Source: Spirochaetota bacterium
GTDB lineage: Bacteria > Spirochaetota > B62-G9 > DRHN01
DNA: 44,042 bases
Direction: 5' to 3'
Assembly (NCBI GenBank): GCA_035527995.1
Contig: DATKZJ010000033.1
Location: forward strand, 1 to 44,042
Shown: piece after piece, positions 2,231 to 41,353 of the stretch
How positions within the stretch are numbered: position 1 is the first letter of the stretch
Layout of the letters: each line of letters opens with the position of its first letter
Made by a program: the position numbers and the translations under genes
The notes under the pieces: generated by a model
The model's database searches: none
Told to the model about the DNA's origin: nothing
The model's input: the letters and a program-made list of their open reading frames with translations, nothing else

Positions 2231-3286
2231 ATGAAGTACGATGAGAAAGAGCTTCTGGCAAAGGCAAAGAGGCCCGGTGAGGTCGCATCGAAGCTCCACC
2301 GGCTCTATCAGGGTAAGATAGAGGTGCTGCCCCGGTGCAGGGTAAAGAAGCTCAGCGACTTTAATGTCTGGTATACTCCGGGGGTTGCGGCCACGTGCAG
2401 GGAGATACAGAAGAACAGGGAGTTGGTATACGAGTATACGTGCAAATGGAACACTGTTGCCGTAATATCGGACGGAACGCGTGTGCTCGGACTCGGAGAC
2501 ATCGGCCCTGAGGCGGCGATGCCCGTTATGGAGGGCAAGTCGCTCCTCTTCAAGTACCTAGGCGACGTTGATGCGTTCCCTCTCTGCCTCGATACGAAGG
2601 ACCCGGAGCGGTTTATCGAAACGGTGAAGATCCTGCAGCCTTCGCTTGGAGGTGTAAACTTAGAAGACATCTCGCAGCCGAAGTGTTTTTACATACTTGA
2701 TCGATTGAGAAAGGAGTGCTCTATTCCTGTATGGCACGATGATCAGCAGGGTACGGCGGCTGTTATCGTTGCAGGACTGATGAATGCGGTGAAGGTGAAG
2801 AAGGAGTGGATTTCGCGAATGGCGAACAATTCCATTGTTTTCGTATGCGCGAATCCCGTGCCTGAAATCTGGCCATGGGAGGCAAAGGAGGCAGGCGCCA
2901 GGGTCGTTGCGACGGGCAGGAGCGATTTTCCCAACCAGGTTAATAACTCTCTGGGTTTTCCCGGAATATTCCGCGGCACCCTCGATGTGCGTGCCAGGAC
3001 GATAACCGATGAAATGTGCATCGAAGCTGCACGTGAGCTGGCAAAGACGGCCGAAGATCGGGGTCTCAGGGACGACTACATCATCCCGACGATGGATGAG
3101 TGGGAGGTCTTTCCGAGAGAGGCGGCTGCTGTGGGGATGAAGGCGATAGAGCAGGGCATCGCGCTTCAGCCGCTGGAGAAAGATGAGCTCTACAGAAGGG
3201 CGGAATCGATTATAAGAACAGCGCGAGAGAAAACGAAGATGCTGTTCGAAAAGGGGTTTATTACCGACCATGATGAGGATTTTTGA
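2231..3286 (+). CDS. Malic enzyme (NAD(P)-dependent malate dehydrogenase, decarboxylating) lacking the central dinucleotide-binding segment
   Basis: Conserved malic-enzyme blocks are present: YTPGVA, WNTVAVISDGTRVLGLGDIGP, PVMEGKSLLFK, GGVNLEDISQPKCF, IPVWHDDQQGTA, then VFVCANPVPEI and ATGRSDFPNQVNNSLGFPGIFRG. The roughly 80-100 aa that normally lie between HDDQ.GTA...NA.K and ...ANPVPEI, including the GxGxxG loop, are absent. See the finding at 2786-2803. Confidence 0.8.
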   Translation: MKYDEKELLAKAKRPGEVASKLHRLYQGKIEVLPRCRVKKLSDFNVWYTPGVAATCREIQKNRELVYEYTCKWNTVAVISDGTRVLGLGDIGPEAAMPVMEGKSLLFKYLGDVDAFPLCLDTKDPERFIETVKILQPSLGGVNLEDISQPKCFYILDRLRKECSIPVWHDDQQGTAAVIVAGLMNAVKVKKEWISRMANNSIVFVCANPVPEIWPWEAKEAGARVVATGRSDFPNQVNNSLGFPGIFRGTLDVRARTITDEMCIEAARELAKTAEDRGLRDDYIIPTMDEWEVFPREAAAVGMKAIEQGIALQPLEKDELYRRAESIIRTAREKTKMLFEKGFITDHDEDF

Positions 3287-3301
3287 CGGAGGACAAAAGC
3301 C

Positions 3302-4159
3302 ATGGGTGGAAAGCCTCGAACTGTAGATCTGCAAGAGGTGAAAAAGGCGGTAAAGAGTTTGAGCATCAGCGCCTGTACGGACCTGAACAGAGACGTAGAA
3401 GAGTCCTTCAAGCGGGCGATTGAGAAAGAGGAATCTCCCGTAGGCAGGGCAATATTCGAACAGCTTCTGAAGAATGCAGACATTGCCAGGCAGCAATCCA
3501 TACCCATATGCCAAGATACAGGGTTCACCGTGGTGTTTCTGGAGATAGGACAGGACGTTTCCTTCAGCGGGGGGTATCTGGGGGATGCGATTTCAGAGGG
3601 TGTGAGCGAGGCATATAAAGAGGGTTACCTGAGGAAATCGATTGTGAAGAACGCGTATACAAACCCTGAGAACACGGGTGACAACACCCCACCGATCGTC
3701 CATACCCGGATCGTCCCGGGAGACAGGGTAAAGATAACGGTGCTTCCCAAGGGTGGCGGCTCGGAAAACATGAGCAGGATAAAGATGATGAAGCCTGCCG
3801 ACGGTATGGAGGGAGTGCGCGACTTTGTCGTGGAGACCGTAAGGGGCGCAGGTGCGAACCCCTGTCCTCCTATTCTGGTGGGGGTCGGTCTCGGAGGAAC
3901 GTTTGATTATGTGGCGTACCTTGCAAAGAAGTCGTTACTGCGGGAGATAGGGGAGAGAAATCCAGACCCTGAGCTCGCCCGCTATGAGGTGGAGTGGCTC
4001 GAAACAATAAACAGACTCGGTATCGGTCCGGCAGGGCTCGGCGGAAGGTTCACCGCTCTGGATCTCTTTATTGAGGCGTTCCCGCGTCATATTGCCTCGT
4101 ATCCGGCGGCGGTCAACATCCAGTGCCATGCCGCACGAAGCAAAACGCATACGCTGTAG
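3302..4159 (+). CDS. fumA: Class I (Fe-S) fumarate hydratase, alpha subunit (L(+)-tartrate dehydratase alpha not excluded)
   Basis: 285 aa with the hydro-lyase alpha signature ICQDTGFTVVFLEIGQDV. Start lies 15 nt after the malic enzyme stop. The neighbouring malate and succinate enzymes favour fumarase. Confidence 0.82.
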   Translation: MGGKPRTVDLQEVKKAVKSLSISACTDLNRDVEESFKRAIEKEESPVGRAIFEQLLKNADIARQQSIPICQDTGFTVVFLEIGQDVSFSGGYLGDAISEGVSEAYKEGYLRKSIVKNAYTNPENTGDNTPPIVHTRIVPGDRVKITVLPKGGGSENMSRIKMMKPADGMEGVRDFVVETVRGAGANPCPPILVGVGLGGTFDYVAYLAKKSLLREIGERNPDPELARYEVEWLETINRLGIGPAGLGGRFTALDLFIEAFPRHIASYPAAVNIQCHAARSKTHTL

Positions 4160-4184
4160 AAACAACGAAGGGTACGGAGGAACA

Positions 4185-4739
4185 ATGGGAGACAAAAAGG
4201 TTGAAGCGCCGTTGACAGCCGAGACGGTCAAAAACCTCAAAGCAGGGGACGGCGTTCTGCTCTCAGGAGTCATATATACTGCGCGCGATGCTGCACATAA
4301 GAGGCTCGTGGATCTTATCGACAAAGGTGGACAGCTTCCTTTTGATCCGGAGGGGAGCGTCATCTATTATGTCGGCCCGTCTCCCGCTCCTCCAGGACAC
4401 GTGATAGGCGCTGCCGGACCGACGACGAGCTGCAGGATGGACAGCTACACGCCTCTGCTCTTGAAGCACGGAGTAAAGGGGATGATAGGCAAGGGGCAGC
4501 GGTCCGCTGAGGTCAAAAGGGCAATACAGGAGTATACGGCCGTTTACTTCGGAGCGACCGGAGGGGCGGCAGCGCTGATATCAGGAGCCATCGTGGAGGC
4601 GAAGATGATCGCATTCGATGATCTCGGGACCGAAGCGGTTCGACGGCTCGTTGTAAAGGAGATGCCTCTTGTAGTGATAAACGACTGTTACGGGAGGGAT
4701 CTCTATATAGAAGGAAAAAGAAAGTGGTCTCGAGAGTAG
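4185..4739 (+). CDS. fumB: Class I (Fe-S) fumarate hydratase, beta subunit
   Basis: The track ORF opens at 4071 but overlaps fumA. ATG 4185, preceded by GGAGG (4176-4180), gives MGDKKVEAPL... with the beta-subunit blocks SGVIYTARDAAHKRL and GPSPAPPGHVIGAAGPTTS. Confidence 0.82.
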   Translation: MGDKKVEAPLTAETVKNLKAGDGVLLSGVIYTARDAAHKRLVDLIDKGGQLPFDPEGSVIYYVGPSPAPPGHVIGAAGPTTSCRMDSYTPLLLKHGVKGMIGKGQRSAEVKRAIQEYTAVYFGATGGAAALISGAIVEAKMIAFDDLGTEAVRRLVVKEMPLVVINDCYGRDLYIEGKRKWSRE

Positions 4740-4847
4740 AAAGGGGCTGGTGTGATGGATAGACCGAATGCGGAGTCTGCTGCTTTTAAAAGTAATGAAA
4801 TCGGGGCTGATCGCAACGACTACGTTCTGAAGAGGAAGGATCGATCC

Positions 4848-5255
4848 ATGAATTTAAAGCTTTCTTCAAAAGAGTTGAAAAAAGAGGGTATTGAAAAAAC
4901 AGTAGAGATAAGCGAGGCGAACATATATTCCTGCTATCAGTGCGGAAAGTGCACTGCAGGGTGCCCGACCTCGGAGTTCATGGATATACCGCCGCATGAG
5001 GTGATAAGGCTTTTACAGCTGGGACAGATCGAAGAAATATTGAACGAAAACACCATCTGGATCTGTGCCTCCTGCATTACCTGCGCTGTTCGGTGTCCGA
5101 AAGGGGTGGACCTGTCAAAGATAATGGAGGCCTTGAGGCAGATCGTCCTGAGAAAGAATGTTAACCATGTTCATCCGAACAAAGTCTCGAAAGAGAAGCT
5201 GCAGACATTGCCGCAGATTGCTCTTATTGCGAATTTCCGCAAGTTCACTCATTAG
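4848..5255 (+). CDS. hdrC: Heterodisulfide reductase subunit C-like 2x[4Fe-4S] protein
   Basis: Two C-x2-C-x2-C-x3-CP motifs (CYQCGKCTAGCP, CASCITCAVRCP) separated by the HdrC-type helix PPHEVIRLLQLGQ. The start is ambiguous: GTG 4752, ATG 4755, or ATG 4848. I favour 4848 because GAGGAAGGA lies upstream of it. Confidence 0.8.
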   Translation: MNLKLSSKELKKEGIEKTVEISEANIYSCYQCGKCTAGCPTSEFMDIPPHEVIRLLQLGQIEEILNENTIWICASCITCAVRCPKGVDLSKIMEALRQIVLRKNVNHVHPNKVSKEKLQTLPQIALIANFRKFTH

Positions 5256-5298
5256 CGCGAAAGAAGAGCAAATACAATACGGGGAGTTATAGATACTA

Positions 5299-6183
5299 AT
5301 GGAAACCGTATCTTATATGCCGGGATGCACTTTAAAGACAGCAGGAAAAAATTTCGAAGAATCGGCTATAAGGCTTCTGGAAATACTAGGCGTTACGGTT
5401 GAAGAGCTCGAACGATGGTTCTGCTGCGGCACGACCTATTCTTTGTCCTCTGACAACCTTATGAACCACCTTGCGCCTGTAAGGACTCTGCTCCGTGCAA
5501 AAGAGACCGGCAGGCGGGAACTACTGGTTCTCTGTTCGATGTGCTACAATACGCTGCGAAGAACTCAGGACCTCGTGCTTCACGATCAAGAGAAGCGTGA
5601 CAAGATAAATGAATTCATGTATCGAGAAGAAACGACATTCAGCGGAGATGAAGTCAGGGTTGTTCATCTTCTCAACTATTTGAAAGATAACGTCGGATTT
5701 GAAAGGGTAGCCGAACACATTATCAGGAAGCCGTCGGATTTGAAAATAGCGCTCTATTATGGATGTATGCTCCTCCGCCCGGAAGAGGTCTCGATCGACG
5801 AGTCTTCGGAAGATCCTGTTATCATGGAGGAGCTTTTTTCATCATGCGGTATCGAGCCCGTATATTTTCCCTTTAAAACCGAGTGCTGCGGCTCATATCA
5901 GACGGTGAATAAAATAGATATCGTCCTGTCGAGGGCAGAACAGATCATAGATTCCGCCGTGAATAACGGCGCCGATATGATTGTTACCTCCTGCCCTCTC
6001 TGCTACCATAATCTCGATTCTTCTCAGGAAAGACTGGCCGATACGGTGTTCGGCTTCAGGAATATTCCTGTCATATACATAAGTCAGTTGTTGGCGTTAT
6101 TGGTCGGGGCGGGCGATGCAGCAGATTACAGTCTGCACTCGGTCGATCCGAGGCCTGTTTTAAAAGAAAAAGGATTGATTTGA
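5299..6183 (+). CDS. hdrB: Heterodisulfide reductase subunit B-like protein (two CCG domains)
   Basis: 294 aa with two CCG-domain signatures (WFCCGTTY, ECCGSYQ) and terminal C-x2-C motifs (CSMCYN, CPLCYHN). This is the only CCG-domain protein in the window. Confidence 0.85.
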   Translation: METVSYMPGCTLKTAGKNFEESAIRLLEILGVTVEELERWFCCGTTYSLSSDNLMNHLAPVRTLLRAKETGRRELLVLCSMCYNTLRRTQDLVLHDQEKRDKINEFMYREETTFSGDEVRVVHLLNYLKDNVGFERVAEHIIRKPSDLKIALYYGCMLLRPEEVSIDESSEDPVIMEELFSSCGIEPVYFPFKTECCGSYQTVNKIDIVLSRAEQIIDSAVNNGADMIVTSCPLCYHNLDSSQERLADTVFGFRNIPVIYISQLLALLVGAGDAADYSLHSVDPRPVLKEKGLI

Positions 6184-8150
6184 TGATTGTGGGTAAACGT
6201 CTGAACAGCATCGGTGTTTTTATCTGCCACTGCGGGATAAACATTGCTTCCATCGTCGACATCGAAGAGGTAAAAAAACAGCTTTCCGTCTATCCCGGAG
6301 TCGAGTTTGTGAAAGATTACCAGTACATGTGCTCAGAACCGGGGCAGTTGCTGTTCAAACAAGCGTGCGGTTCTGGAACAGTCGAAGGGGTTGTAGTTGC
6401 ATCCTGCTCGCCTAGGCTCCATGAAACGACATTTCGAAGGGCTGCGATCGAAGCCGGCATGAATCCGTATCGAATAGAGATAGCCAACATAAGGGAACAG
6501 TGTTCCTGGGTTCATCGCGATGAGAAAGAGAAGGCGACGGAAAAGGCCGTAGACATAATACAGAGCGTGATAGAACGCTCGAAACGCAACGAGTCTCTCA
6601 CTGCGGTTTCCATACAGACTACAAAGAAGGCGCTTGTTGTCGGGGCAGGTATCAGCGGGATGCAGGCGGCCCTGAATATAGCCAACAGCGGGGTCGAGAC
6701 GTATCTTCTCGACAGAGAGCCCTCCATCGGCGGGCGTATGGCCCAGCTTTCAGAAACCTTTCCGACACTGGACTGTTCGCAGTGTATCATGACGCCGCGC
6801 ATGGTCGAGGTGGGGCAGAACAGGAACATTACGCTCTTGACCTACTCCGATGTCGAGGAGGTATCGGGGTATGTCGGTAATTTCAAAGTAAAAGTACGCC
6901 GAAAGGCGGCGTATGTCGACTGGGACACGTGTACAGGCTGCGGCATATGTTCTGAAAAGTGTCCAAAAAAAGTCCCTTCCCAGTTTGATCGCTTGCTAGG
7001 CCATCGCAAGGCGATTTATAGCCCCTTTCCTCAGGCTGTTCCGAACAAGACCGTTATCGATAAGGAGAACTGTCTCTATTTTAAGACAGGCAGGTGTCGG
7101 CTCTGCGCCAAGGCCTGCCCGCTCGGAGCGATCGATTTCGAGCAAAAAGACAGGATCGAAGAGATCGAGGTAGGTGCTATTGTTGTGGCAACAGGCTATG
7201 ACCTCTACGAGAAGGAAAAGATCGAAGAGTACAGAATCGGATATTGTGAGGACGTGGTTGATGGGCTGGCCTTCGAGCGGCTCCTTTCCTCTTCGGGTCC
7301 GACGCAGGGCAAGGTCGTCCGTCCCTCCGACGGAACCGTACCGAAAGAGGTGGTATTCATACAGTGTGTGGGGTCGCGCGATCCCAACAATCATCTGCCC
7401 TACTGTTCACGTATCTGCTGTATGTACACGGCAAAGCATGCCATGCTCTACAAGCACAGGGTACCGGACGGGCAGCCGTATGTTTTTTACATGGACATTC
7501 GTTCGGGCGGAAAAAACTATGAGGAGTTCGTTCAGAGGACAATTGAAGAGGAAAAGGTTTTATATATCCGGGGCAGAGTGGCGAGGTTGTACCGGGAAAA
7601 CAACAAGGTCGTTGTCGTTGGCGCAGATACTCTCTCAGGGAAAAAGATCGAGATCAGGGCGGACATGGTCGTTCTGGCAATGGCAATGCGCCCTTCCGGA
7701 GGGATCGAGGAGTTGTCCAAAAAACTCAAGATACAGATCGACGGGAACGGATTTCTGGCGGAAGCGCATCCCAAACTTCGCCCTGTGGAAACACTGACCC
7801 AGGGCATTTTCCTCGCGGGCTGTGCGCAGGCGCCGAAAGATATCACTGATACGGTGTCCCAGGCAGGTGCGGCGGCCTCCATGGTGCTGGAACTTCTTTC
7901 GAATGAAGAGCTCTCGCATGACCCCACCACCTCATGGATAGACGAAGAGTTGTGTGCAGGGTGCGGTCAGTGTGTCTCCCAGTGCGCCTATAATGCTATA
8001 GAGCTCGACGAGAAAAAGAAAAAGGCGCATGTCAATGAAATACTGTGCCAGGGGTGCGGGGCATGTATCGTTACATGTCCGTCCGGTGCGGTGCATCAGA
8101 GGAATTTCACGATGAGTCAGTACTATTCGATGATCGAATCACTGGTATGA
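6183..8150 (+). CDS. hdrA: Heterodisulfide reductase subunit A-like FAD/FeS protein (canonical length)
   Basis: N-terminal Cys domain IGVFICHCGINIAS, the FAD Rossmann motif VVGAGISGMQAAL, DCSQCIMTPR, inserted ferredoxin motifs CTGCGICSEKCP, IQCVGSRD...YCSRICCMY, and the C-terminal ferredoxin CAGCGQCVSQC...CQGCGACIVTCP. ATG 6183 overlaps the hdrB stop by 1 nt. Confidence 0.9.
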   Translation: MIVGKRLNSIGVFICHCGINIASIVDIEEVKKQLSVYPGVEFVKDYQYMCSEPGQLLFKQACGSGTVEGVVVASCSPRLHETTFRRAAIEAGMNPYRIEIANIREQCSWVHRDEKEKATEKAVDIIQSVIERSKRNESLTAVSIQTTKKALVVGAGISGMQAALNIANSGVETYLLDREPSIGGRMAQLSETFPTLDCSQCIMTPRMVEVGQNRNITLLTYSDVEEVSGYVGNFKVKVRRKAAYVDWDTCTGCGICSEKCPKKVPSQFDRLLGHRKAIYSPFPQAVPNKTVIDKENCLYFKTGRCRLCAKACPLGAIDFEQKDRIEEIEVGAIVVATGYDLYEKEKIEEYRIGYCEDVVDGLAFERLLSSSGPTQGKVVRPSDGTVPKEVVFIQCVGSRDPNNHLPYCSRICCMYTAKHAMLYKHRVPDGQPYVFYMDIRSGGKNYEEFVQRTIEEEKVLYIRGRVARLYRENNKVVVVGADTLSGKKIEIRADMVVLAMAMRPSGGIEELSKKLKIQIDGNGFLAEAHPKLRPVETLTQGIFLAGCAQAPKDITDTVSQAGAAASMVLELLSNEELSHDPTTSWIDEELCAGCGQCVSQCAYNAIELDEKKKKAHVNEILCQGCGACIVTCPSGAVHQRNFTMSQYYSMIESLV

Positions 8151-8160
8151 GGATTGTTTC

Positions 8161-13046: not shown

Positions 13047-13063
13047 CGGTATGAGGTTTGAAA

Positions 13064-14158: not shown

Positions 14159-14204
14159 AAAGCAGGAGCTGGTTTTTAAAGAAACTATAAAACGGGTTGG
14201 AGTC

Positions 14205-14672
14205 ATGAAAACGATCGATCCAGAATTCAAACGTGAAGTAGCAGGCTGTCCGGGAGGCGAGAACATCATGCGATGTTTCGCCTGCGGGACATGCGTTCTC
14301 TCCTGTCCTGTCAGCGAGGTTACAGCCGAGTACAGCCCGCGTAAAATAATCCATATGATCCTGCTGGGAATGAAGGACGAGGTTCTCGGTTCGGAAGCTA
14401 TCTGGTACTGCATGACCTGTTACAGGTGTCATGTGCGATGCCCCCAGGATGTAAAATATCCTGAAATAATGCGTGTATTGAGAAAACTGGCCGTAGAGCA
14501 GGGGTATGTAAAGCCGGGATTTATTACCGCCGTCAGCGAGGTGGATACCGTCACGCAGGATATAAGGCGCGATATGCTGAAACGGATTGTCGAAAAGCGT
14601 AATTCGATTACAGAGGACGATATAACCGAGATCCGCAACTATTCGAAAACAACGGGCAGGAATCATGGATAA
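14205..14672 (+). CDS. Second HdrC-like 2x[4Fe-4S] protein
   Basis: The track ORF opens at 13977 but overlaps the previous gene. ATG 14205 gives MKTIDPEF... with CFACGTCVLSCP, SPRKIIHMILLGMKDEVL and CMTCYRCHVRCP, the classic HdrC layout. Confidence 0.8.
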   Translation: MKTIDPEFKREVAGCPGGENIMRCFACGTCVLSCPVSEVTAEYSPRKIIHMILLGMKDEVLGSEAIWYCMTCYRCHVRCPQDVKYPEIMRVLRKLAVEQGYVKPGFITAVSEVDTVTQDIRRDMLKRIVEKRNSITEDDITEIRNYSKTTGRNHG

Positions 14673-17600: not shown

Positions 17601-17676
17601 TTTCAGCGGTGCGATCGATCTGAGCGGATTTACTAATAAACAGATAGTAAAAGAGTTCCAGGAACTTTTTATATAG
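14665..17676 (+). CDS. Tandem HdrA-like fusion (QmoA-like half plus full HdrA), 1003 aa
   Basis: The first half starts directly at the FAD Rossmann motif (VIGGGIGGVQAGL, NDCSTCILSPK, CTACGLCSEKCP, FIQCVGSRD...YCSSYCCMQ). The second half starts at IGVIVCHCGTNIGS, near nt 16020, and runs to CTGCGLCAEVC...CKGCGTCAATC. The start overlaps the preceding gene by 8 nt. Confidence 0.88.
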   Translation: MDKRILVIGGGIGGVQAGLDLAQMGIRVSLVEEKPNIGGRMAQLDKTFPTNDCSTCILSPKLVELASHPNVDIYTYSSVEDIIKTGDRFRVRIRKRARFVDEEKCTACGLCSEKCPVKIPDLFNKNITTSKCISIPYAQAVPAVYKIDREHCLRLTKGKCGVCEKVCPAGAVDYEQKDRIEDMDFSSIIVAAGAEEFTPQIRPEYGYKIYENVVTSIEYERFLSASGPTNGHITRPSDGKQPESVAFIQCVGSRDVASGNYGYCSSYCCMQAAKDAVITKEHGAGINSTIFYIDIRAYGKDFDRFVDRAKTEYGVEYKRSRVSEILESQDTKNLTVKYITPDGTLKAEEFDIVVLSVGIRIPDRLGGLLAGLGVKLGEYGFCQCRTFRPGETGIDGVYVCGTVTGPMDIPETVVSASATASLAARGLLSPDRTSEIIADNPEEADLSGKPLTIGVIVCHCGTNIGSVVDVPSVVEYAGSMPNVVFSHGLLYACSQDSIRYIIDKIKEHDLNRVVVASCSPRTHEALFQRGLERAGLNKYLLQMTNIRDQCSWVHRDTPDLATQKAKELVRMAVGKARYLKPLYELYSDVKKACLVIGGGMAGMMAALFVADNGFRVYLIEKEGELGGNLLKLKSLLTEEDVASSVKRIVGRIEEHPRIELFLNADIKEIEGYIGNFTTKLMVDDEEKKVEHGAVIVATGAKEHVTESYGYKTDPYVITQREFETILEKKNPLMKYVDSIAMIQCVDSREGDRNYCSRVCCGQAVKNILQLKKHYPEKTVYVLYRDMRTYGLREPYYAMARESGALFLWYDETRKPVVEKIEQGSFRINLFDEILQEKIQLPVQLIVLGVGIDPLDTNDRVAKMLKVPLTEDGFFHEAHVKLRPVDFSTRGVFVCGMAHGPKYIDESIAQALAAAGRALTVLTNDKVSSEAYTASVDEALCTGCGLCAEVCAYGAVEIDKEKASVNALLCKGCGTCAATCFSGAIDLSGFTNKQIVKEFQELFI

Positions 17677-17800
17677 GCGGATATGTATGAGCTGCCGGGT
17701 CGAAACATGACCTTTTACAGCGGGGGATGCTGTTTATTGACCGTTTCTTGTTGCGGCGATTGCTATAAAACCCGACAACGGCTCTGTTAGAGATGGAAAA

Positions 17801-18208
17801 ATGGAAAAAAGATTGAAGATAGTGGGATTCCTATGCAACTGGTGCTCGTATGCCGGGGCGGACCTCGCAGGAGTCAGTCGATTCCAGTATCCGGCGGATA
17901 TCCGTGTCATACGAGTCCCCTGCTCCGGGAGGGTGAATCCGTTGCTGGTACTGAAGTGTTTTCAGGAAGGAGCGGACGGGGTGCTGGTATCGGGTTGTCA
18001 TCCGGGTGACTGTCACTATCAGGAGGGCAACTACTACACGAGGCGAAGAATGATGATGCTGAAGAACCTCCTCGATTTCTTCGGAATAGACAAGAGGCGG
18101 TTTCATATTTCCTGGGTTTCCGCCTCCGAAGGGAAAAAGTGGGCCGATATCGTTATAAAGGTGGTTGAGGATGTCGGGGCTGCTTTGGAAGAGATAACAA
18201 AACAATGA
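17801..18208 (+). CDS. flxD: MvhD-like protein (FlxD position)
   Basis: FLCNWCSYAGADLAG and SGCHPGDCHY motifs. It is followed by overlapping Flx-type genes in the order D-C-B-A, as in the Desulfovibrio hdrCBA-flxDCBA locus. Confidence 0.8.
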   Translation: MEKRLKIVGFLCNWCSYAGADLAGVSRFQYPADIRVIRVPCSGRVNPLLVLKCFQEGADGVLVSGCHPGDCHYQEGNYYTRRRMMMLKNLLDFFGIDKRRFHISWVSASEGKKWADIVIKVVEDVGAALEEITKQ

Positions 18209-19062
18209 TCGGCAAGATTAAAAAAACAGCAAAACAGATACTGGGCGACGGGACGGTGAGCCTTTTTTTAGGATACGGCAAGAACAGTCTCGGTGATACT
18301 GTTCCGGTTTTTATAAAACAGGAGAAAGATGTCGAAAAGCTTGTTTGGGATGAAAGCTGTTATTACAACCTCACAAGGTACTTTACGGATAAAGATATAA
18401 ATCAATTCGAAGAAGGTCCGATCGGTGTGTTAGTCAAGGGATGCGACCAGAAATCCCTGAAAGTACTGCTGTCCGAAAAACAGGTCAAAAGAGATAGAAT
18501 CAGGATCGTAGGCCTTGTCTGCAGCGGCATGAAGAACGAGAAAGGGGATTTTTTTACAAAATGTGAGACCTGTGATTCGAACAACCCTGACGGCGAGCTG
18601 TGCGATGTCGTCATCGGGCAGAAGGTCGAGAGGAAAAACAGAGAGGATGATTTTTCCGATATAGAAAAGATCGAAGCTCTCGATCCCGCGCAAAGGCAGG
18701 AACTCTGGAGCAGATATTTCGATCGATGTCTGCGCTGTTATGCATGCCGAAACATCTGTCCGCTCTGTTACTGTAATGAATGCATCGTGGAGCAGAACGA
18801 CCCGGGGTGGGTACGGCCCTCAGCATCGAAGGAAAACAACCTCTATTTTCACATTATCAGGGCATACCATCTGACAGGCAGGTGCACAGGCTGCGGGGAA
18901 TGTGAACGTGCATGCCCTGTCGGTATCCCGTTACGCAAAATCAACAGGCGGATGATAAGGGCAGTGAGAGACAGTTTCGATTTTATAGCAGGCAGGGACG
19001 CCGAGACAAAGTCGCCTCTGGCCTGTTTCAGGCAGGACGATCGTGAGGATTTCATAAAATAG
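18205..19062 (+). CDS. flxC: FlxC-like iron-sulfur protein
   Basis: Motifs CLRCYACRNICPLCYCNEC and CTGCGECERACPVGIP. There is a 4-nt overlap with the upstream gene. Confidence 0.7.
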   Translation: MIGKIKKTAKQILGDGTVSLFLGYGKNSLGDTVPVFIKQEKDVEKLVWDESCYYNLTRYFTDKDINQFEEGPIGVLVKGCDQKSLKVLLSEKQVKRDRIRIVGLVCSGMKNEKGDFFTKCETCDSNNPDGELCDVVIGQKVERKNREDDFSDIEKIEALDPAQRQELWSRYFDRCLRCYACRNICPLCYCNECIVEQNDPGWVRPSASKENNLYFHIIRAYHLTGRCTGCGECERACPVGIPLRKINRRMIRAVRDSFDFIAGRDAETKSPLACFRQDDREDFIK

Positions 19063-19071
19063 CAGGACTGT

Positions 19072-20079
19072 ATGAGTTTATCTATGGATGAAACGGTCTT
19101 CGGTAAAAAAGAGTTATTACAAATACTAAAATCCGTATCAGACAGATGCGTGATAATAGGGCCTGTCATGGAAGACGAGAAGCTGTATTTCAGGCCTGTC
19201 GATTGTATTGATGACATAGTGTGGGAGTTTGATAATACGGTCAACAGTATCAAGGAGTTCTTCTTTCCTCAGCGCCAGGCTTTGTATGAATTAAAGCAGG
19301 ACAAGATAAGGACGTTTGAGCCTGATATAGAAAAAAAGAGGATCCTCCTCTTTCCCCGCCCGTGCGATGTTCGTGCCGTGACGATTCTGGACAAGCTGTT
19401 CATGGGTGATTATGAGGATCGGGCGTATAGAACTTTACGGGAGAATACCGTTATCATGGGTCTCAGCTGCCGAAATCCTGGTCCGCGCTGCTTCTGTCTT
19501 TCGATCGGGGGCAACCCCTTTGGCATGGAAGGAATGGATGTCTCGATTACTGCTTTAGAAAACGATAAATATATTCTCAACACGGTCACAGATAGAGGGA
19601 AAGTTATTTTTGAAGGGAAAGGCAAAAGGGCGGATAAGGAAGAGGTACAGCGGTTCGAGAGGCTGAAGAAACAGGCGGAAGAATCCATTAAGAGGGAGAT
19701 ACATATTCCAAAAGACCTTCTGAAAGCATTTGAATCGGACTACTGGAAAGAAGTATCAGAGGCCTGTCTGAAATGCGGTGTCTGTACCTATCTTTGTCCG
19801 ACCTGTCACTGTTTTGATATCGTAGACGAACGGTTTTATCGAATCAGATGCTGGGATACATGCAGCTCCGATGCGTTTACGCGAATGGCGTCAGGGGAGG
19901 ATTCCAGGAAAAATAAGTTCAAGCGATACAGGCAGAGGATATATCATAAATTCAGCTATTATAAGGAAAACTTTGAAGAGTACGCCTGCGTGGGCTGTGG
20001 GCGGTGTGCGCAGTACTGTCCGGTCAAGACGGACATCGTTGAGATTGTGAGCACTGTAAATGAAAAAGGAACGCCATGA
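19072..20079 (+). CDS. flxB: FlxB-like iron-sulfur protein (AsrA / sulfhydrogenase-beta family)
   Basis: Motifs CLKCGVCTYLCPTCHCFD and CVGCGRCAQYCP, at a length typical of AsrA/HydB-like proteins. Confidence 0.7.
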   Translation: MSLSMDETVFGKKELLQILKSVSDRCVIIGPVMEDEKLYFRPVDCIDDIVWEFDNTVNSIKEFFFPQRQALYELKQDKIRTFEPDIEKKRILLFPRPCDVRAVTILDKLFMGDYEDRAYRTLRENTVIMGLSCRNPGPRCFCLSIGGNPFGMEGMDVSITALENDKYILNTVTDRGKVIFEGKGKRADKEEVQRFERLKKQAEESIKREIHIPKDLLKAFESDYWKEVSEACLKCGVCTYLCPTCHCFDIVDERFYRIRCWDTCSSDAFTRMASGEDSRKNKFKRYRQRIYHKFSYYKENFEEYACVGCGRCAQYCPVKTDIVEIVSTVNEKGTP

Positions 20080-20912
20080 AAGACATCCTTGTACCCGACC
20101 TGGCACAGATAAAAGATATAAAAGGTGAGACGCCCGATGTCATCACTCTGAAGCTCGTTTTTAAAGACAAGGACAAGAGGGATACCTTTTCTTTTTATGC
20201 GGGACAGTTCGTAGAGCTTTCCGTTCCAAAAGAAGGTGAATCGACCTTTTGTATAGCATCCGCACCGTCCGACAAAGGGTATATGGAATGCAGCATTAAA
20301 AAGGTCGGCAGGGTAACGGAAGCCGTTCATATGCTCGAACCCGGTGACACCGTCGGTATCAGGGGCCCTTACGGGAACTCGTTTCCGATCGAGCAGATGA
20401 AAGGCAGGAACATACTGTTTATCGGAGGCGGGATCGGTCTCGTGCCGCTCCGGTCTTTGATACGGGAAGTGCTTTCCATACGAAATGATTTTAAAGACTT
20501 GCGTATCATTTACGGTGCGAGAAGCGTTACAGATCTCGTGTATAAGGACGAGCTTGACGAGTGGGGAAAGCGCGGGGATATCAAGGTCACGCTGACACTG
20601 GACCCGGGCGGCGAAACCGAAGAATGGAAGGGAGAGGTCGGGTATGTTCCTGAAGTCCTGAAAAAACAGACCCCCGTAAAACAAAACAGCATTGCCCTCA
20701 CCTGCGGTCCGCCTGTTATGATAAAGCTCGCTCTGAATGCACTCGACGAGATGGGGTTTACTCCGAAACAGATTTTCACAACGCTCGAGATGAAGATGAA
20801 GTGCGGTATAGGCACATGCGGAAGGTGTAATGTAGGGCCTCTCTATGTCTGTAAAGACGGACCTGTCTTTACCTATGAGCAGATAAAGGGGTTTATCGAG
20901 GACATATTCTGA
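20076..20912 (+). CDS. flxA: FlxA-like FAD/NAD(P)-binding oxidoreductase with C-terminal 2Fe-2S (AsrB / PyrK / sulfhydrogenase-gamma family)
   Basis: Ferredoxin-reductase fold motifs (GQFVELSVP, ILFIGGGIGLVPLRS, LTCGPPVM) and the C-terminal cluster CGIGTCGRCNV. There is a 4-nt overlap with flxB. Confidence 0.8.
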   Translation: MKDILVPDLAQIKDIKGETPDVITLKLVFKDKDKRDTFSFYAGQFVELSVPKEGESTFCIASAPSDKGYMECSIKKVGRVTEAVHMLEPGDTVGIRGPYGNSFPIEQMKGRNILFIGGGIGLVPLRSLIREVLSIRNDFKDLRIIYGARSVTDLVYKDELDEWGKRGDIKVTLTLDPGGETEEWKGEVGYVPEVLKKQTPVKQNSIALTCGPPVMIKLALNALDEMGFTPKQIFTTLEMKMKCGIGTCGRCNVGPLYVCKDGPVFTYEQIKGFIEDIF

Positions 20913-20934
20913 TCTTTGTATGGAGGAAGCTGTA

Positions 20935-21693
20935 ATGGACAAAAAAGATATCATGGAGAAGATTGCTGAGTCGAACAAATCCGTTACAACGGGAATAGAC
21001 GAGAAGGACATAGAGCACTGGGTGAAGATATATGTCATGGGAATGGAGTACCGGGTCCCTGCGGTTCTTACTGTGATGCAGGCGATGGAATATGCCGGGT
21101 ACAGGTTTATTCGTTCGTGCGGCTGCAGAGCAGGTTTCTGCGGCGCATGTTCGACTGTGTATCGAACAAAAGACGATTACAAACTCAAGACGGCAATGGC
21201 ATGTCAAACAAGGGTAGAGGACGGAATGTATCTCGTTCAGATCCCCTTCTCGCCCGCAGAGAAGGCTTTCTATGATATAGAGAGCGAGGAGTACAGTGCA
21301 AATGTTTTTCTGAAGTGGTATCCGGAGATTGCCCGCTGTTTGTCCTGCAATACATGTACAAAGGCGTGTCCCCAGGATATCGAGGTCATGGATTACATAC
21401 AGGCGGCTTTGAGAGGAGATTTTGAAAAGGTCGCCGAGATTTCATTCGACTGCATTCAATGCGGGCTCTGCGCCATACGATGTCCTGCCGAGATAGTTCA
21501 GTATTACATTGGCCAGCTTGGAAGGAGAATGTATGGGCTGCATGGGCTGCCGAGGGACGAAAATGTTGAAAGCAGGGTAAAAGAGATAAAAGAAAATAAA
21601 TATGATGAAGAATTCGAAAAAACCATGGGCTTCAATAACGAAAAGCTTAGATCCGTTTATTCGGAGTACCAGAGAACAAGAGAGGTTTATTGA
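20935..21693 (+). CDS. SdhB/FrdB-like iron-sulfur subunit (2Fe-2S domain plus two 4Fe-4S-type motifs)
   Basis: Plant-type 2Fe-2S pattern CRAGFCGAC...C, then CLSCNTCTKACP and CIQCGLCAIRCP. The ORF opens at ATG 20920, but GGAGGA precedes ATG 20935. Confidence 0.72.
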   Translation: MDKKDIMEKIAESNKSVTTGIDEKDIEHWVKIYVMGMEYRVPAVLTVMQAMEYAGYRFIRSCGCRAGFCGACSTVYRTKDDYKLKTAMACQTRVEDGMYLVQIPFSPAEKAFYDIESEEYSANVFLKWYPEIARCLSCNTCTKACPQDIEVMDYIQAALRGDFEKVAEISFDCIQCGLCAIRCPAEIVQYYIGQLGRRMYGLHGLPRDENVESRVKEIKENKYDEEFEKTMGFNNEKLRSVYSEYQRTREVY

Positions 21694-21704
21694 GGGGGTT
21701 TGAG

Positions 21705-23366
21705 ATGTCCGAACTTACGTTTATCGATGGATATCCTGAATATATGTATGAGTCGATAAAGAAGGTTGAAAAGACCCGTGATAAACGGATAGGAAAACTG
21801 GTCCCACAGATGTCGCAAAAACAGAGAAGGGAAATTCTTGACCAGTATCATCCGGATTATACTGAGGGTGGAAAGAGACAGATCAGGCATGGGCAGAACA
21901 GGGGAGATCTGGCACCTCATGAGCTTGTCGATCTACTCGAATCGTTTCCATTGATAGATGAGAACGATGTGGACTTGAGTAAAATAGACTATGAAGTGGA
22001 TGTTCTTATTATCGGGGGCGGTCTCGCAGGGACGAGTGCGGCGCTGCTCGCCAATGAGTCCGGGATACCAGCGGAGAAAATACTGCTTGTTAACAAGCTT
22101 CGGCATGGTGATTCCAATTCCACGATGGCCCAGGGAGGCACGCAGGCAGCGGACAGGCCCAACGACTCTCCTGTTATTCACTATTTAGATGTGATAGGAG
22201 GGGGCCATTTTACGAACAAGCCTGATGTTGTACGGGCCCTTACCGAGGACGCCCCTGTTGTCGTTAAATGGCTCTGCGATCTCGGTGTTCTGTTCGACAG
22301 AGATGAGGATGCAGGCTTTATCGAGCTTTCAGGAGGCGGGACGTCGAGAAAGAGGATGCATGCCTGCAGGGATTATACGGGCATGGAGGAGTTGAGGGTA
22401 ATAAAGGATGAATTCAAGAACAGAAAAATAAACGTCCTTGAGTTTCATCCGGCTATCGAGCTTCTGACCGACGGGAGTGGAACCGTAACAGGTGCCGTAC
22501 TGTGGGGACTGGAGACGCATGAATACAGGATCGTGAAGGCAAAGGCCACGATAGTTGCTACTGGCGGATTCGGGAGGCTGCACATAAGGGGGTTCCCAAC
22601 CACAAATCATTACGGTGCCACGAGTGATGGAATCATTCTTGTCTACAGGGTGGGTGCAAAGCTTCTGGATACAGACACGGTACAGTACCACCCTACAGGC
22701 GCGGCGTATCCACAGCAGATTATAGGCCTTTTATTGACTGAGAAATTGAGAACGAGCGGTGCTCAACCGGTTAATATAGACGGCGATGAATTCGTGTTTC
22801 CGCTTGAACCCAGGGATGTGGAGGCGTCGGCAATTATCAGGGAATGTTACGGTAATGACAAAGGGGTGACGACTCCATCGGGCATGAGAGGCGTTTGGCT
22901 GGATACCCCTCTTATCGATATAATAAACGGTGAAGGAACAGCCCAGAAGTCTTTTCCCGGAATGGTACGGATGTTCAAGAGATTCGGGATCGATATGATA
23001 AAGAATCCGGTTCTTATCTTCCCGACACTTCATTATCAGAACGGTGGCGTAGAGACAGATCCGTTTGGAAAAACAAATGTAAAAGGACTGTTTGTTGCCG
23101 GAGAGGTTACAGGCGGAGTACACGGGAAAAATAGATTGATGGGAAACTCCACTCTCGATTGCCTTGTGTTCGGGCGGAGGGCGGGCAGTACAGCGGCGGA
23201 ATATGTAAAAATGCGTAAAGCATACGGGAGACTGACGCTACAGCACTTAAATACGTATACAAAAATGCTCGTGGAAGCAGGAGTCAAGACACAAAGAAGA
23301 GCGCCGATTCTACTTCCTGATTATAGGGGGAAGGCAGTACTTGCCAGGATGATAGACGTAATGTAG
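21705..23366 (+). CDS. Fumarate reductase / succinate dehydrogenase / L-aspartate oxidase family flavoprotein with an N-terminal extension of about 95 aa
   Basis: Motifs DVLIIGGGLAGTSAAL, SNSTMAQGG, VQYHPTG, LLTEKLR, PTLHYQNGG and GGVHGKNRLMGNSTLDCLVFG. The ORF opens at TTG 21690. ATG 21705 follows GAGGGGG. Confidence 0.8.
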   Translation: MSELTFIDGYPEYMYESIKKVEKTRDKRIGKLVPQMSQKQRREILDQYHPDYTEGGKRQIRHGQNRGDLAPHELVDLLESFPLIDENDVDLSKIDYEVDVLIIGGGLAGTSAALLANESGIPAEKILLVNKLRHGDSNSTMAQGGTQAADRPNDSPVIHYLDVIGGGHFTNKPDVVRALTEDAPVVVKWLCDLGVLFDRDEDAGFIELSGGGTSRKRMHACRDYTGMEELRVIKDEFKNRKINVLEFHPAIELLTDGSGTVTGAVLWGLETHEYRIVKAKATIVATGGFGRLHIRGFPTTNHYGATSDGIILVYRVGAKLLDTDTVQYHPTGAAYPQQIIGLLLTEKLRTSGAQPVNIDGDEFVFPLEPRDVEASAIIRECYGNDKGVTTPSGMRGVWLDTPLIDIINGEGTAQKSFPGMVRMFKRFGIDMIKNPVLIFPTLHYQNGGVETDPFGKTNVKGLFVAGEVTGGVHGKNRLMGNSTLDCLVFGRRAGSTAAEYVKMRKAYGRLTLQHLNTYTKMLVEAGVKTQRRAPILLPDYRGKAVLARMIDVM

Positions 23367-30430: not shown

Positions 30431-30479
30431 GCAACGCTCCTTGTCATGATTCTCTGTGATTGTTGATCTGTAGAATAGT

Positions 30480-41224: not shown

Positions 41225-41353
41225 AGATTCGTTTTATTTTCCGGTAAAGTTAATCATCATTATTATTAAAATCAAGGTAAGATACTGATACTACCCGGGA
41301 TTTGGAGTAAACACAACAAAAAAACAATCCCCGGGACAGCTGCTTGGTTCACA

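Follow-up and report, generated by a model that had tools for sequence, protein, structure and literature searches.

Gene content of the array

The window analyzed here is a 44,042-nucleotide stretch of a Spirochaetota contig (DATKZJ010000033.1). ORF and profile analysis placed 17 tightly packed genes in an operon-like array of about 21 kb (positions 2231 to 23366), all of them, like every gene described below, on the plus strand. A preliminary description of this DNA had counted 18 genes, a number reached only with the upstream aldehyde:ferredoxin oxidoreductase (AOR) gene (71 to 1918; Pfam AFOR_N and AFOR_C); the gene identities and order that it gave agree with our Pfam, NCBIfam, and PDB searches. 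Two long gaps, of 108 nt (4740 to 4847) and 124 nt (17677 to 17800), were likewise confirmed, with all remaining gaps at or below 43 nt, but six or seven junctions overlap rather than five. A hairpin scan, which provides weak evidence, detected no plus-strand terminator-like hairpin in either long gap. The AOR gene is co-directional with the array, from which it is separated by 312 nt, and it also adjoins the Frd pair in other loci (L002, L014, L046, and L047); AOR is a possible ferredoxin-linked partner of the array.

As previously described, a malic enzyme gene and both fumarase genes head the array, yet the former (2231 to 3286; Pfam malic, and Malic_M at profile positions 178 to 244 only) lacks its NAD(P) loop. 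Alignment with full-length homologs from L027, L050, L063, L075, and L010 traced the loss of this GxGxxG loop to an in-frame deletion of about 95 amino acids, and the encoded enzyme is probably inactive. The alpha subunit of a class I fumarate hydratase follows (3302 to 4159; Pfam Fumerase, 364 bits), and then the beta subunit (4185 to 4739; Fumerase_C, 186 bits), whose ATG start at 4185 is preceded by a GGAGG Shine-Dalgarno sequence.

Next comes an HdrC of 135 amino acids with two [4Fe-4S] sites (4848 to 5255; NCBIfam CoB_CoM_SS_C-like match, two CxxCxxCxxxC motifs), similar in length to its homologs in L002 and L010. HdrB (5299 to 6183; two Pfam CCG domains) matches the methanogen HdrB structures 8rvv and 5odc over its full length with 122 bits. 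It is adjoined by a canonical full-length HdrA (6183 to 8150; NCBIfam HdrA2, 807 bits) that scores 688 bits against the HdrA of the solved methanogen Mvh-Hdr complexes (8rvu and 5odc) and is the candidate bifurcating flavoprotein. The 1,477-residue HdrL-like protein (8161 to 12594; PRK12771, 511 bits over residues 154 to 657, plus HdrA models) consists of two HdrA units in tandem, the first of which is interrupted by an NAD(P)H module resembling GltD/NfnB, according to a segment map against the first HdrA (HdrL is defined in PMC2702500). The ATG of the following gene, for an MvhD-type [2Fe-2S] adaptor (12591 to 13046; Pfam FlpD, 175 bits), overlaps the hdrL stop. An FeS protein (13064 to 14158; FrhB_FdhB_C and Fer4) resembles FlxC (25% identity; E = 7e-25 in BLASTP) and FlxB (E = 2e-9). 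A second HdrC (14145 to 14672; CoB_CoM_SS_C, 93 bits), 35% identical to the first, precedes a 1,003-residue tandem HdrA (14665 to 17676; HdrA2, 976 bits in three stretches) with two HdrA-like units in the segment map.

The flx genes encode FlxD, of the MvhD type (17801 to 18208; FlpD, 177 bits); the FeS protein FlxC (18205 to 19062), assigned by Fer4 families and its place in the flxDCBA order; the FeS protein FlxB (19072 to 20079; Fer4_22, 103 bits); and FlxA, which has a [2Fe-2S] site and is the module for NAD(P)H:FAD oxidoreduction (20076 to 20912; FAD_binding_6, NAD_binding_1, and DHODB_Fe-S_bind). HdrB is the single CCG protein of the array, as noted before, but what had been taken for three HdrA-type units are three proteins carrying five HdrA-like flavin units.

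The array is therefore not an assembly artifact, since the order from hdrL to frdA is identical in a contig of an independent metagenome-assembled genome (L001; 68 to 94% amino acid identity). It represents an elaborated variant in which a five-gene HdrL/tandem-HdrA module has been inserted between hdrCBA and flxDCBA. A distance of 14.7 kb separates hdrCB from frdBA, a point against their coupling, although both belong to one gene string.

A distinct FrdB/FrdA pair without membrane anchors

The last two genes encode an SdhB-like FeS subunit, FrdB (20935 to 21693; Pfam Fer2_4 and Fer4), and a 553-residue fumarate-reductase-type flavoprotein, FrdA (21705 to 23366; Pfam FAD_binding_2 only). FrdB has sites for one [2Fe-2S] and two [4Fe-4S] clusters and lacks a CCG domain; its 12 cluster-ligand cysteines are 100% conserved among 73 family members. 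FrdA has a conserved N-terminal extension of 100 amino acids. It retains all four substrate and catalytic residues of the Sdh/Frd/NadB enzymes, and the motifs HPTG, LRTSG, HYQNGG, and NRLMGNS, which can be aligned to those of NadB and SdhA, do not vary in the family alignment. The earlier description of this protein as N-extended and SdhA-like is borne out, but the SdhA C-terminal domain is missing and FrdA falls below every curated Sdh, Frd, Tfr, and NadB cutoff in Pfam and NCBIfam. Its best Foldseek matches are Escherichia coli FrdA and Mycobacterium smegmatis Sdh1. By these sequence features, FrdAB is a distinct, very conserved flavoprotein/FeS pair with an Sdh/Frd active site. The histidine for covalent FAD attachment is replaced by asparagine (SNSTMAQGG), which predicts a noncovalent FAD site. 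Absence of this histidine favors fumarate reduction; in E. coli FrdA, the noncovalent enzymes produced by His44 variants lose succinate oxidation.

No array protein contains transmembrane-like segments beyond Rossmann strands in a sequence scan, bearing out the reported absence of a membrane-anchor subunit.

FrdAB is associated with Hdr genes across bacteria and archaea

We surveyed the neighborhood of the FrdAB family in 80 metagenome loci, from hosts ranging from Spirochaetes through Bathyarchaeota to Asgard archaea. FrdB lies upstream of FrdA throughout and is adjacent to it in 75 of the 80. Among the 54 loci with enough upstream sequence, 34 have HdrC-HdrB immediately upstream of FrdBA; 11 more carry Hdr genes elsewhere in the locus, and 9 have none in reach. 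Where at least 4 kb was available on both sides (27 loci), HdrA was found in 22 and MvhD in 20. At 85% identity the loci form 59 lineage clusters, 45 of which contain Hdr genes, across bacterial and archaeal phyla and in several gene orders. Mvh-type [NiFe] hydrogenase and flxCBA recur near the pair. Complete HdrA-MvhD-MvhG-MvhA-HycI-HdrC-HdrB-FrdB-FrdA operons exist (e.g., L056), as do HdrA-MvhD-FlxCBA-FrdBA (L015 and L028) and MvhD-FlxCBA-HdrA-HdrC-HdrB-FrdBA, with hdrA-hdrC-hdrB between flxA and frdB (L080); L010, L007, and L014 have the same parts in other orders. Fumarase and/or malic enzyme genes occur in 13 loci and 2-oxoacid:ferredoxin oxidoreductase subunits in 14 to 17.

The preliminary description had named membrane anchors or NAD biosynthesis genes beside relatives of the pair as evidence against its reading; neither anchors nor NadA/NadC were seen near FrdAB among the metagenome loci. 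The anchor-less pair is thus supported as functionally tied to Hdr-type modules. Because the FrdAB-Hdr neighborhood recurs without anchors or an NAD biosynthesis context, there is good support for regarding it as encoding a soluble fumarate reductase that is linked to Hdr and probably bifurcates electrons.

Proposed mechanism and alternatives

On balance, we lean toward the array encoding a cytoplasmic, quinone-independent, Hdr-linked fumarate reductase that bifurcates electrons, reducing ferredoxin alongside fumarate. Fumarase would supply fumarate, which FrdA and FrdB would reduce to succinate with electrons passing from the HdrA flavin through HdrC-HdrB to FrdB. FlxABCD would deliver NAD(P)H electrons to HdrA via the MvhD-like FlxD; the HdrL-MvhD-FlxC-like-HdrC2-tandem-HdrA module is probably a second feed, with its GltD-like insert binding NAD(P)H. 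The HdrA flavin would send one electron downhill to fumarate (+33 mV) and the other uphill to ferredoxin, for a net reaction of 2 NAD(P)H + fumarate + Fd(ox) → 2 NAD(P)+ + succinate + Fd(red). Fumarate would thereby take the place of CoM-S-S-CoB, the high-potential acceptor of MvhAGD-HdrABC. We infer that the proteins form a physical complex, that FeS clusters connect them directly with no thiol shuttle in between, that electrons are bifurcated, and that the HdrL module has the role given here; only the presence of HdrA suggests coupling to ferredoxin.

An unlikely alternative has the same net chemistry minus the continuous FeS wire: the CCG clusters of HdrB would be the site at which Flx/HdrL-HdrABC reduces a disulfide carrier, for which a small dithiol, lipoyl-GcvH, and a DsrC-like protein are candidates, and a split thiol:fumarate reductase, HdrCB-FrdBA, would reoxidize this carrier. 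Both CCG motifs of HdrB are intact (residues 42 and 196), and five loci carry a GcvH-like lipoyl carrier gene, while L010 has an ORF between fumarase and hdrC that resembles a lipoate ligase by sequence; these features could mean a dithiol intermediate. GcvH has been proposed to partner HdrB in Culexarchaeia (PMC9723716), and the thiol-oxidizing TfrB of methanogens fuses SdhB-like and HdrB-like parts (Heim 1998, as cited in PMC6315080), which the array holds separately as FrdB and HdrB. Yet most loci lack a carrier gene, no GcvH gene was found in the window, Pfam scans detected no DsrC-like domain among its larger ORFs, and the close hdrC-hdrB-frdB-frdA adjacency suggests a single complex.

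Less probable still is a plain soluble NAD(P)H:fumarate reductase, in which an electron wire from NAD(P)H, made up solely of Hdr, Flx, and GltD-like proteins, leaves ferredoxin unreduced. It would functionally resemble the five-subunit enzyme of Hydrogenobacter thermophilus; a soluble NADH-dependent multisubunit enzyme is known and is reported to be irreversible (Miura 2008, summarized in PMC13147460). The GltD-like module in HdrL fits this idea, as does a sister FrdAB group (44% identical) paired with a NuoF-like NADH module instead of Hdr; the FrdAB pair can therefore work without Hdr. However, a full-length HdrA closely resembling the bifurcating methanogen enzyme is kept with the pair in most well-covered loci, the variants with an Mvh-type hydrogenase parallel the bifurcating Mvh-Hdr complex, and ferredoxin-dependent Kor and AOR recur as neighbors.

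Mere co-location, with Hdr, HdrL, and Flx serving another acceptor and FrdBA plus fumarase forming a separate unit, is improbable: the gaps before hdrC and flxD and the lineages whose FrdAB pair lacks Hdr would permit it, but the coupling recurs in 45 of 59 clusters and the array contains no other candidate acceptor enzyme.

The preliminary description had left the direction open, and its fumarate reductase reading is the one supported here. Reverse operation, with succinate and reduced ferredoxin driving NAD(P)+ reduction to pull syntrophic propionate degradation, is very improbable, despite the reversibility in principle of flavin-based bifurcation, the abundance of Hdr/Flox and HdrABC/HdrL complexes in the propionate oxidizer S. 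fumaroxidans (PMC5947623), and the succinate oxidation suggested for an SdhA-HdrB cluster in Culexarchaeia (PMC9723716): the histidine that would bind FAD covalently is absent, the reaction is strongly endergonic (an estimated +40 kJ/mol or so at standard conditions), Pfam scans found no methylmalonyl-CoA pathway genes within the window, family contexts are reductive or H2-consuming (Kor, H2-uptake Mvh, rTCA-type), and known syntrophs rely on membrane Sdh with reverse electron transport (PMC5947623).

Relation to published systems

The concept of an Hdr/Flx-linked bifurcating fumarate reductase is not new, and its novelty had been overstated. A Flx-Hdr-linked, possibly bifurcating enzyme was proposed for the “succinate operon” of Pseudoclostridium thermosuccinogenes (PMC7282089 and a preprint cited there), backed by transcript coregulation and H2 inhibition of succinate formation (PMC7282089). 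Similar proposals concern tubeworm-symbiont rTCA clusters and Thioflavicoccus (PMC6315080, PMC11636981, and PMC13147460), with coexpression reported in Endoriftia (PMC11636981). The preliminary description knew of no characterized complex with this composition, in agreement with our literature search, which found neither biochemical proof of such an enzyme nor biochemical or structural evidence for any FrdAB family member.

Across the family, the coupling of FrdAB to HdrCB(A)-MvhD is conserved and the electron donors alternate among Mvh hydrogenase, FlxCBA, and HdrL. If the array bifurcates as proposed, part of the approximately −68 kJ/mol from NADH:fumarate reduction would be saved as reduced ferredoxin.

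Gene content of the array

The plus-strand genes from 2231 to 23366 form a co-directional array, as the preliminary description proposed, but they number 17 rather than 18; the higher count is reached only by adding the co-directional aldehyde:ferredoxin oxidoreductase (AOR) gene at 71–1918. Pfam and NCBIfam scans bore out the gene identities and order given there. The first six genes encode malic enzyme, the alpha and beta subunits of a class-I fumarase, HdrC, HdrB (with two CCG domains), and HdrA. They are followed by the genes for an HdrL-like protein of 1477 aa, whose residues 154–657 form a GltD-like NAD(P)H module, for MvhD, an FlxC-like FeS protein (25% identical to FlxC; E = 7e-25), a second HdrC (HdrC2; 35% identical to the first), and a tandem HdrA of 1003 aa. 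The 3′ part comprises flxD, flxC, flxB, flxA, and the genes for an SdhB-like FeS protein (FrdB, 20935–21693) and an N-extended SdhA-like flavoprotein (FrdA, 21705–23366). With the best-supported starts, only two gaps exceed 43 nt, at 4740–4847 (108 nt) and 17677–17800 (124 nt), and six or seven junctions overlap. A scan of these two gaps for terminators and promoters gave nothing convincing and is uninformative either way. The order from hdrL to frdA is identical, at 68–94% amino acid identity, in L001, an independent MAG contig of a Spirochaetes bacterium; therefore, the arrangement is not an assembly artifact.

A full-length HdrA, an HdrB with two CCG domains, and an HdrC with two [4Fe-4S] motifs are encoded together. 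HdrA aligns with its counterpart in solved Mvh-Hdr complexes (5odc, 8rvu) at 688 bits, and HdrB matches solved HdrB over its full length (122 bits), keeping both CCG motifs. Scores fall under the methanogen equivalog cutoffs (HdrA2, 807 against 1100), and the set is thus homologous to, rather than identical with, the CoM-S-S-CoB enzyme. HdrB is the only CCG-domain protein of the array, and a hydropathy scan found a transmembrane segment in none of the 17 proteins, both in agreement with the preliminary description. Its count of three HdrA-type units holds for proteins but not for units: the segment map gives five HdrA-like flavin units, since HdrL and the 1003-aa protein are each a tandem HdrA. 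The HdrL module (8161–17676) includes an MvhD, an FlxC-like protein, an HdrC, and a tandem HdrA of its own, but it lacks an HdrB. The Hdr and MvhD open reading frames contain no in-frame TGA interruption. Elsewhere in the window, selA (selenocysteine synthase; 39787–41085, minus strand) adjoins a tRNA-Sec gene (41131–41226, minus strand), indicating that the host uses selenocysteine.

Compared with its homologs in five related loci (L027, L050, L063, L075, and L010), the malic enzyme gene (2231–3286) lacks about 95 aa through an in-frame deletion, which takes out the GxGxxG NAD(P)-binding loop. Judged from this deletion, the enzyme is probably inactive, or else the region is an assembly collapse. 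At the other end, an FMN riboswitch (RF00050; 23435–23582, plus strand; 103 bits) lies between the frdA stop and the plus-strand genes for an ABC ATPase-permease fusion (23700–25334) and an NMT1/THI5-like binding protein (25331–26344). Since the riboswitch precedes them, an importer of a sulfonate thiol cofactor was rejected; a RibXY-type riboflavin importer is the most likely identity of the transporter, which would be a unit separate from the Frd array and delimit the array at its 3′ end. Both ABC genes also lie 3′ of frdA in L001, as does the ATPase-permease gene in the homologous locus L005, which ends inside that gene. Further along the window (27692–31376, minus strand), a 573-aa acyl-CoA dehydrogenase with an AcylCoA_dehyd_C domain adjoins EtfA and EtfB and may represent a second flavin-based bifurcating system.

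Sequence and predicted structure of FrdA and FrdB

FrdA (553 aa from the ATG at 21705) matches only PF00890 (FAD_binding_2; 209 bits) in Pfam, and the SdhA C-terminal domain (Succ_DH_flav_C, PF02910) was not detected. Against curated NCBIfam models, it scores 284 bits for TfrA, 267 for NadB, and 259 for SdhA/FrdA, all far under cutoff; by sequence, the family is equidistant from these three groups. The closest solved structure scores 183 bits. Comparison with Mycobacterium smegmatis Sdh1 and with NadB of Escherichia coli and Salmonella showed that the four catalytic or substrate-binding residues are kept (HPTG, L-R-TSG, HYQNGG, and NRLMGNS), and an alignment of 20 family members showed these motifs to be invariant. 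FrdA thereby has the residues shared by the Sdh/Frd/NadB superfamily, namely, the catalytic His (HPTG), the proton-donor Arg, the His of HYxxGG, and the Arg of NRLxxNS. In SdhA and FrdA enzymes, covalent FAD is carried by a His within an R-S-H-S/T motif (8-alpha-histidyl FAD). The protein studied here has Asn at this position (DSNSTMAQGG), and its FAD is predicted to be noncovalent. An AlphaFold model built from the 20-sequence alignment was of moderate quality (pLDDT 69); Foldseek placed it closest to E. coli FrdA and mycobacterial Sdh1. The model confirms, at that quality, an Frd/Sdh fold and says nothing reliable on the role of the N-terminal extension.

FrdB contains an SdhB-type [2Fe-2S] motif and two CxxCxxCxxxCP motifs, and all twelve Cys are invariant in 73 homologs. 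The pair is not of the complex II type (quinol:fumarate or succinate:quinone reductases, types A–E), as it has no anchor, no His for covalent FAD, and no Succ_DH_flav_C domain. Nor does it belong to TfrAB: FrdA scores 284 bits against a cutoff of 718, and FrdB scores 35 bits against the TfrB cutoff of 385. FrdB has no CCG domain; the CCG module is the separate HdrB.

Extent of the FrdAB family

The best 120 database matches to FrdA are 71–99% identical to it over 93–100% of the query (99% for nearly all), so that the N-terminal extension is covered. These come from MAGs of Spirochaetes, Aerophobetes, KSB1, Planctomycetota, WOR-3, Deltaproteobacteria, Aminicenantes, Neomarinimicrobiota, and Bathyarchaeota. 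A divergent family member used as a second query added Heimdall-, Loki-, and Thorarchaeota, Thermoplasmata, Theionarchaea, and others. Among the named matches from the two protein searches and a cluster look-up, all are MAGs and none is a cultured organism. At 50% clustering, the family comprises essentially one full-length representative, and the next full-length groups are 42–45% identical to it.

The nearest group outside the family (P0124; Gammaproteobacteria/Thiotrichales MAGs) shows 44% identity. An Flx-Hdr/Kor context like that of tubeworm symbionts was considered for this sister group and found absent: two of its loci (L085 and L086 9366–12891) have instead a three-gene unit of FeS protein, flavoprotein, and NuoF-like NADH module, with no Hdr gene. 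Judging by its gene content, this unit looks like a different, simpler design of soluble NADH:fumarate reductase.

Gene neighborhoods of the FrdB-FrdA pair

A metagenome scan with the FrdA family alignment yielded 80 loci, which we labeled by tblastn with the window's own proteins; the remaining neighbors were clustered and then annotated with Pfam. FrdA in these loci is 55–78% identical to the window protein, with an invariant N-terminal extension. A scan of genome contigs with the single protein gave one locus, L001. The gene for FrdB lies directly 5′ of that for FrdA in 75 of the 80 loci, and the remaining loci are truncated. Where at least 1.4 kb of upstream sequence was available (54 loci), hdrC-hdrB is immediately upstream on the same strand in 34, and Hdr genes occur elsewhere in another 11, as hdrCBA-frdBA or hdrA-mvhD-flxCBA-frdBA. 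In nine of these 54 loci, no Hdr gene is within reach of the pair. Loci flanked by 4 kb or more on each side number 27; of these, 22 have HdrA and 20 have MvhD. Clustering all 84 loci (the 80 plus L001 to L004) at 85% identity gave 59 lineage clusters, with Hdr genes in 45 and fumarase or malic enzyme in 11. The N-extended SdhA-like protein thus co-occurs with Hdr genes, an association whose frequency the preliminary description had proposed to check. Overall, N-extended FrdAB is a sharply defined family with a conserved HdrCB(A)-MvhD partner across many uncultured bacterial and archaeal phyla.

Other neighbors recur as well. The alpha, beta, and gamma subunits of a 2-oxoacid:ferredoxin oxidoreductase are near the pair in 17, 17, and 14 loci, respectively, a Mvh-type [NiFe] hydrogenase with its protease is in 8 to 11, and fumarase and/or malic enzyme is in 13. 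Complete hdrA-mvhD-mvhG-mvhA-hycI-hdrC-hdrB-frdB-frdA strings exist, for example, in L056. The closest relatives have the window's parts in other orders: hdrCBA-frdBA-hdrL in L007, malic enzyme-fumAB-gcvH-(ligase-like ORF)-hdrCBA-frdBA-hdrL-mvhD-flxC-like in L010, and AOR ... frdA-fumAB-hdrCBA-hdrL in L014. AOR genes adjoin the pair in four loci from distant lineages (L002, L014, L046, and L047), and the enzyme may either use or supply the ferredoxin of the Frd system; in L002, the AOR gene (11675–13525) begins 12 nt past frdA. The family is present in Heimdall-, Loki-, and Thorarchaeota, and one locus, L080, whose FrdA is 90% identical to Heimdallarchaeota proteins, reads mvhD-flxCBA-hdrA-hdrC-hdrB-frdB-frdA (2610–11650), with 2-oxoacid:ferredoxin oxidoreductase genes upstream.

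In L023, which belongs to a lineage whose frdBA has no Hdr genes beside it, frdBA neighbors unrelated genes, with a NuoF-GltD fusion a few kilobases away. The set there (13259–19056, minus strand) consists of a glutamate-synthase-like protein, a 2Fe-2S/4Fe-4S protein, and the 1025-aa fusion, and it is conserved 2–6 kb downstream of frdBA on the other strand in L022, L025, L029, and L053 as well. One possible role for this set is to feed in NADH electrons as an alternative module.

Five loci (L010, L015, L036, L054, and L065) have a gene for a GcvH-like lipoyl carrier (PF01597) next to their hdrCB-frdBA core; in L010, this gene spans 2826–3254 and is followed by a 364-aa ORF (3209–4303) resembling lipoate-protein ligase. 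By analogy with LbpA/sHdr systems, these neighbors hint at a protein-bound dithiol as the HdrB substrate. Within the window, tblastn found no GcvH gene, and Pfam scans of the larger ORFs found no DsrC-like domain.

The neighborhoods also bear on the identity of the flavoprotein. For L-aspartate oxidase (NadB), the score (267 for TIGR00551) is below the cutoff of 453, the SdhB-like partner is always adjacent, and neither nadA nor nadC appears among the annotated loci or the larger, recurrent neighbor clusters that were annotated. Thus, genomic context and the FeS partner lead us to reject the NadB reading. No membrane-anchor genes were present in the neighborhoods examined. Two of the outcomes that the preliminary description named as refuting its reading, anchor-associated orthologs and a NadB context, were therefore not observed; on a third, a non-Frd clade, the sequence scores give a partial answer, being equidistant from TfrA, NadB, and SdhA/FrdA. 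Fumarate/succinate is indicated as the substrate couple by the constant presence of the SdhB-like partner and by the fumarase, malic enzyme, and Kor genes nearby.

Comparison with known systems

The idea of an Hdr-coupled fumarate reductase is already in print, as a kind of enzyme predicted but never characterized, and the literature that we searched contained no biochemical or structural characterization of one, in line with the preliminary description. The gene content of the array matches the published descriptions of Flx-Hdr-coupled Frd of the Pseudoclostridium thermosuccinogenes and Endoriftia types. The "succinate operon" of P. thermosuccinogenes comprises fumarate hydratase, a seven-gene Flx-Hdr set, and a two-gene fumarate reductase, and its transcript rises about fourfold under CO2 limitation (Koendjbiharie et al. 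2020, PMC7282089). By these descriptions, both operons combine a class-I fumarase, hdrCBA/flxDCBA, and an anchorless two-subunit Frd, and the mechanism outlined there and in a 2019 preprint, from NADH to fumarate and ferredoxin, would be the same. The window alone has HdrL-MvhD-FlxC-like-HdrC2-tandem HdrA between hdrCBA and flxDCBA; this five-gene insertion and the defective malic enzyme gene are its special features. In tubeworm symbionts ("Ca. Endoriftia") and Thioflavicoccus mobilis, tfrAB is interleaved with flxABCD-hdrABC and korABCD and co-expressed with them, and direct bifurcation to Frd and OGOR was proposed (Rubin-Blum et al., PMC6315080; Mitchell et al., PMC11636981), a proposal repeated in a 2026 survey (PMC13147460). 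They share with our family the soluble two-subunit Frd interleaved with Flx-Hdr, the bifurcation hypothesis, and a recurrent 2-oxoacid:ferredoxin oxidoreductase. Unlike them, the window lacks rTCA genes such as kor and acl, has the extra HdrL module, and comes from a fermenter-type spirochete MAG; moreover, the one Gammaproteobacteria/Thiotrichales relative examined (44% identity) is NuoF linked rather than Hdr linked.

The gene set and hdrCBA...flxDCBA polarity recall FlxABCD-HdrABC of Desulfovibrio vulgaris, with FlxA as the NAD(P)H/FAD module and an MvhD-like FlxD; as summarized in two later papers, the acceptor proposed for that system is DsrC and its partner is an alcohol dehydrogenase (Ramos et al. 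2015, via PMC7282089 and PMC6315080). By Pfam families, the window keeps all seven gene types in this polarity, but they are parted by the 9.5-kb HdrL module, and the operon ends in frdBA. HdrL was defined in Desulfobacterium autotrophicum as a giant fusion of HdrA and the glutamate synthase small subunit, followed by mvhD (PMC2702500). The window protein likewise fuses HdrA with a GltD-like NAD(P)H module next to mvhD; however, it has no selenocysteine interruption and lies inside a fumarate reductase array rather than beside dsr or fdh genes.

Relatives that place MvhA and MvhG between hdrA-mvhD and hdrCB-frdBA resemble MvhAGD-HdrABC of methanogens, except that the acceptor would be fumarate via FrdAB instead of CoM-S-S-CoB; in the window, the donor would be NAD(P)H, not H2. 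Methanothermobacter TfrAB is likewise soluble; its FeS subunit works together with an HdrB-like CCG module and has a second cubane cluster in place of the [3Fe-4S] cluster. Here, in contrast, that module is a separate HdrB with its own HdrC, and FrdA has a 100-aa N-terminal extension and lacks the region matching TfrA positions 410–546. The only soluble multisubunit NADH:fumarate reductase purified from bacteria, the five-subunit enzyme of Hydrogenobacter thermophilus (Miura et al. 2008, as cited in PMC13147460 and PMC10052474), has A and B subunits of similar size by these accounts (63.9 and 27 kDa in the Aquifex aeolicus homologs), but its genes are dispersed, and the same accounts report no HdrA-type bifurcation for it. 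Co-location of SdhA, HdrBC, and GcvH has been noted in Culexarchaeia (Kohtz et al., PMC9723716). To these systems, our analysis adds the family-level picture of N-extended FrdAB with its HdrCB(A)-MvhD partner.

Mechanism and direction

Taken together, our results support a soluble, Hdr-wired fumarate reductase that is probably bifurcating. In the most economical mechanism, HdrCB-FrdBA would be the high-potential exit of an HdrA-based bifurcating system with interchangeable donors. Mvh would deliver electrons from H2 in many lineages, FlxABCD would do so from NADH in the window, L001, L015, L028, and L080, and HdrL from NAD(P)H in the clade of the window. Summed up, this would give 2 NAD(P)H + fumarate + Fd(ox) → succinate + 2 NAD(P)+ + Fd(red), which is strongly exergonic overall by established redox potentials. 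We infer complex formation, direct FeS wiring as against a dithiol shuttle at the intact CCG site of HdrB, ferredoxin coupling, and a role for the HdrL module.

The preliminary description left two directions open, a soluble bifurcating fumarate reductase or a confurcating succinate dehydrogenase, and our results favor the former. Succinate oxidation is unlikely for reasons of FAD chemistry, thermodynamics, and genomic context: the cofactor is predicted to be noncovalent, the reverse reaction would cost about +40 kJ/mol by our estimate, the window contains no methylmalonyl-CoA pathway genes, and the recurrent partners are reductive or H2 consuming. The reaction thus most likely runs in the reductive direction.

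A broader reading, which we put forward tentatively and rate at somewhat under even chances, is that N-extended FrdAB provides the physiological high-potential acceptor module that has been missing for HdrABC-type bifurcating complexes of nonmethanogenic anaerobes, including Bathyarchaeota and Asgard archaea, which have HdrABC-Mvh and no CoM-S-S-CoB. Fumarate would replace the heterodisulfide, and Mvh hydrogenase, FlxABCD, and HdrL would be interchangeable donors. On this reading, the window would hold the genes for the most elaborate form of the system: a mega-complex in the cytoplasm with a single HdrCB-FrdBA exit, fed by two modules for NAD(P)H entry and by five flavin units of the HdrA type.

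Implications

The FrdAB family is easily recognized and offers a concrete target for expression and assay. If the proposed coupling exists, cytoplasmic fumarate reduction would be open to fermenters and autotrophs that have no suitable quinones, and energy would still be saved in the form of reduced ferredoxin, usable for H2 formation, Rnf, 2-oxoglutarate synthase, or AOR. Fumarate would then be a new physiological acceptor for HdrABC-type bifurcation, which would account for the frequency of HdrABC-Mvh and Flx genes in hosts without CoM-S-S-CoB, Asgard archaea and Bathyarchaeota included, and the energetics calculated for succinate fermentation and for the reductive TCA cycle would need revising.
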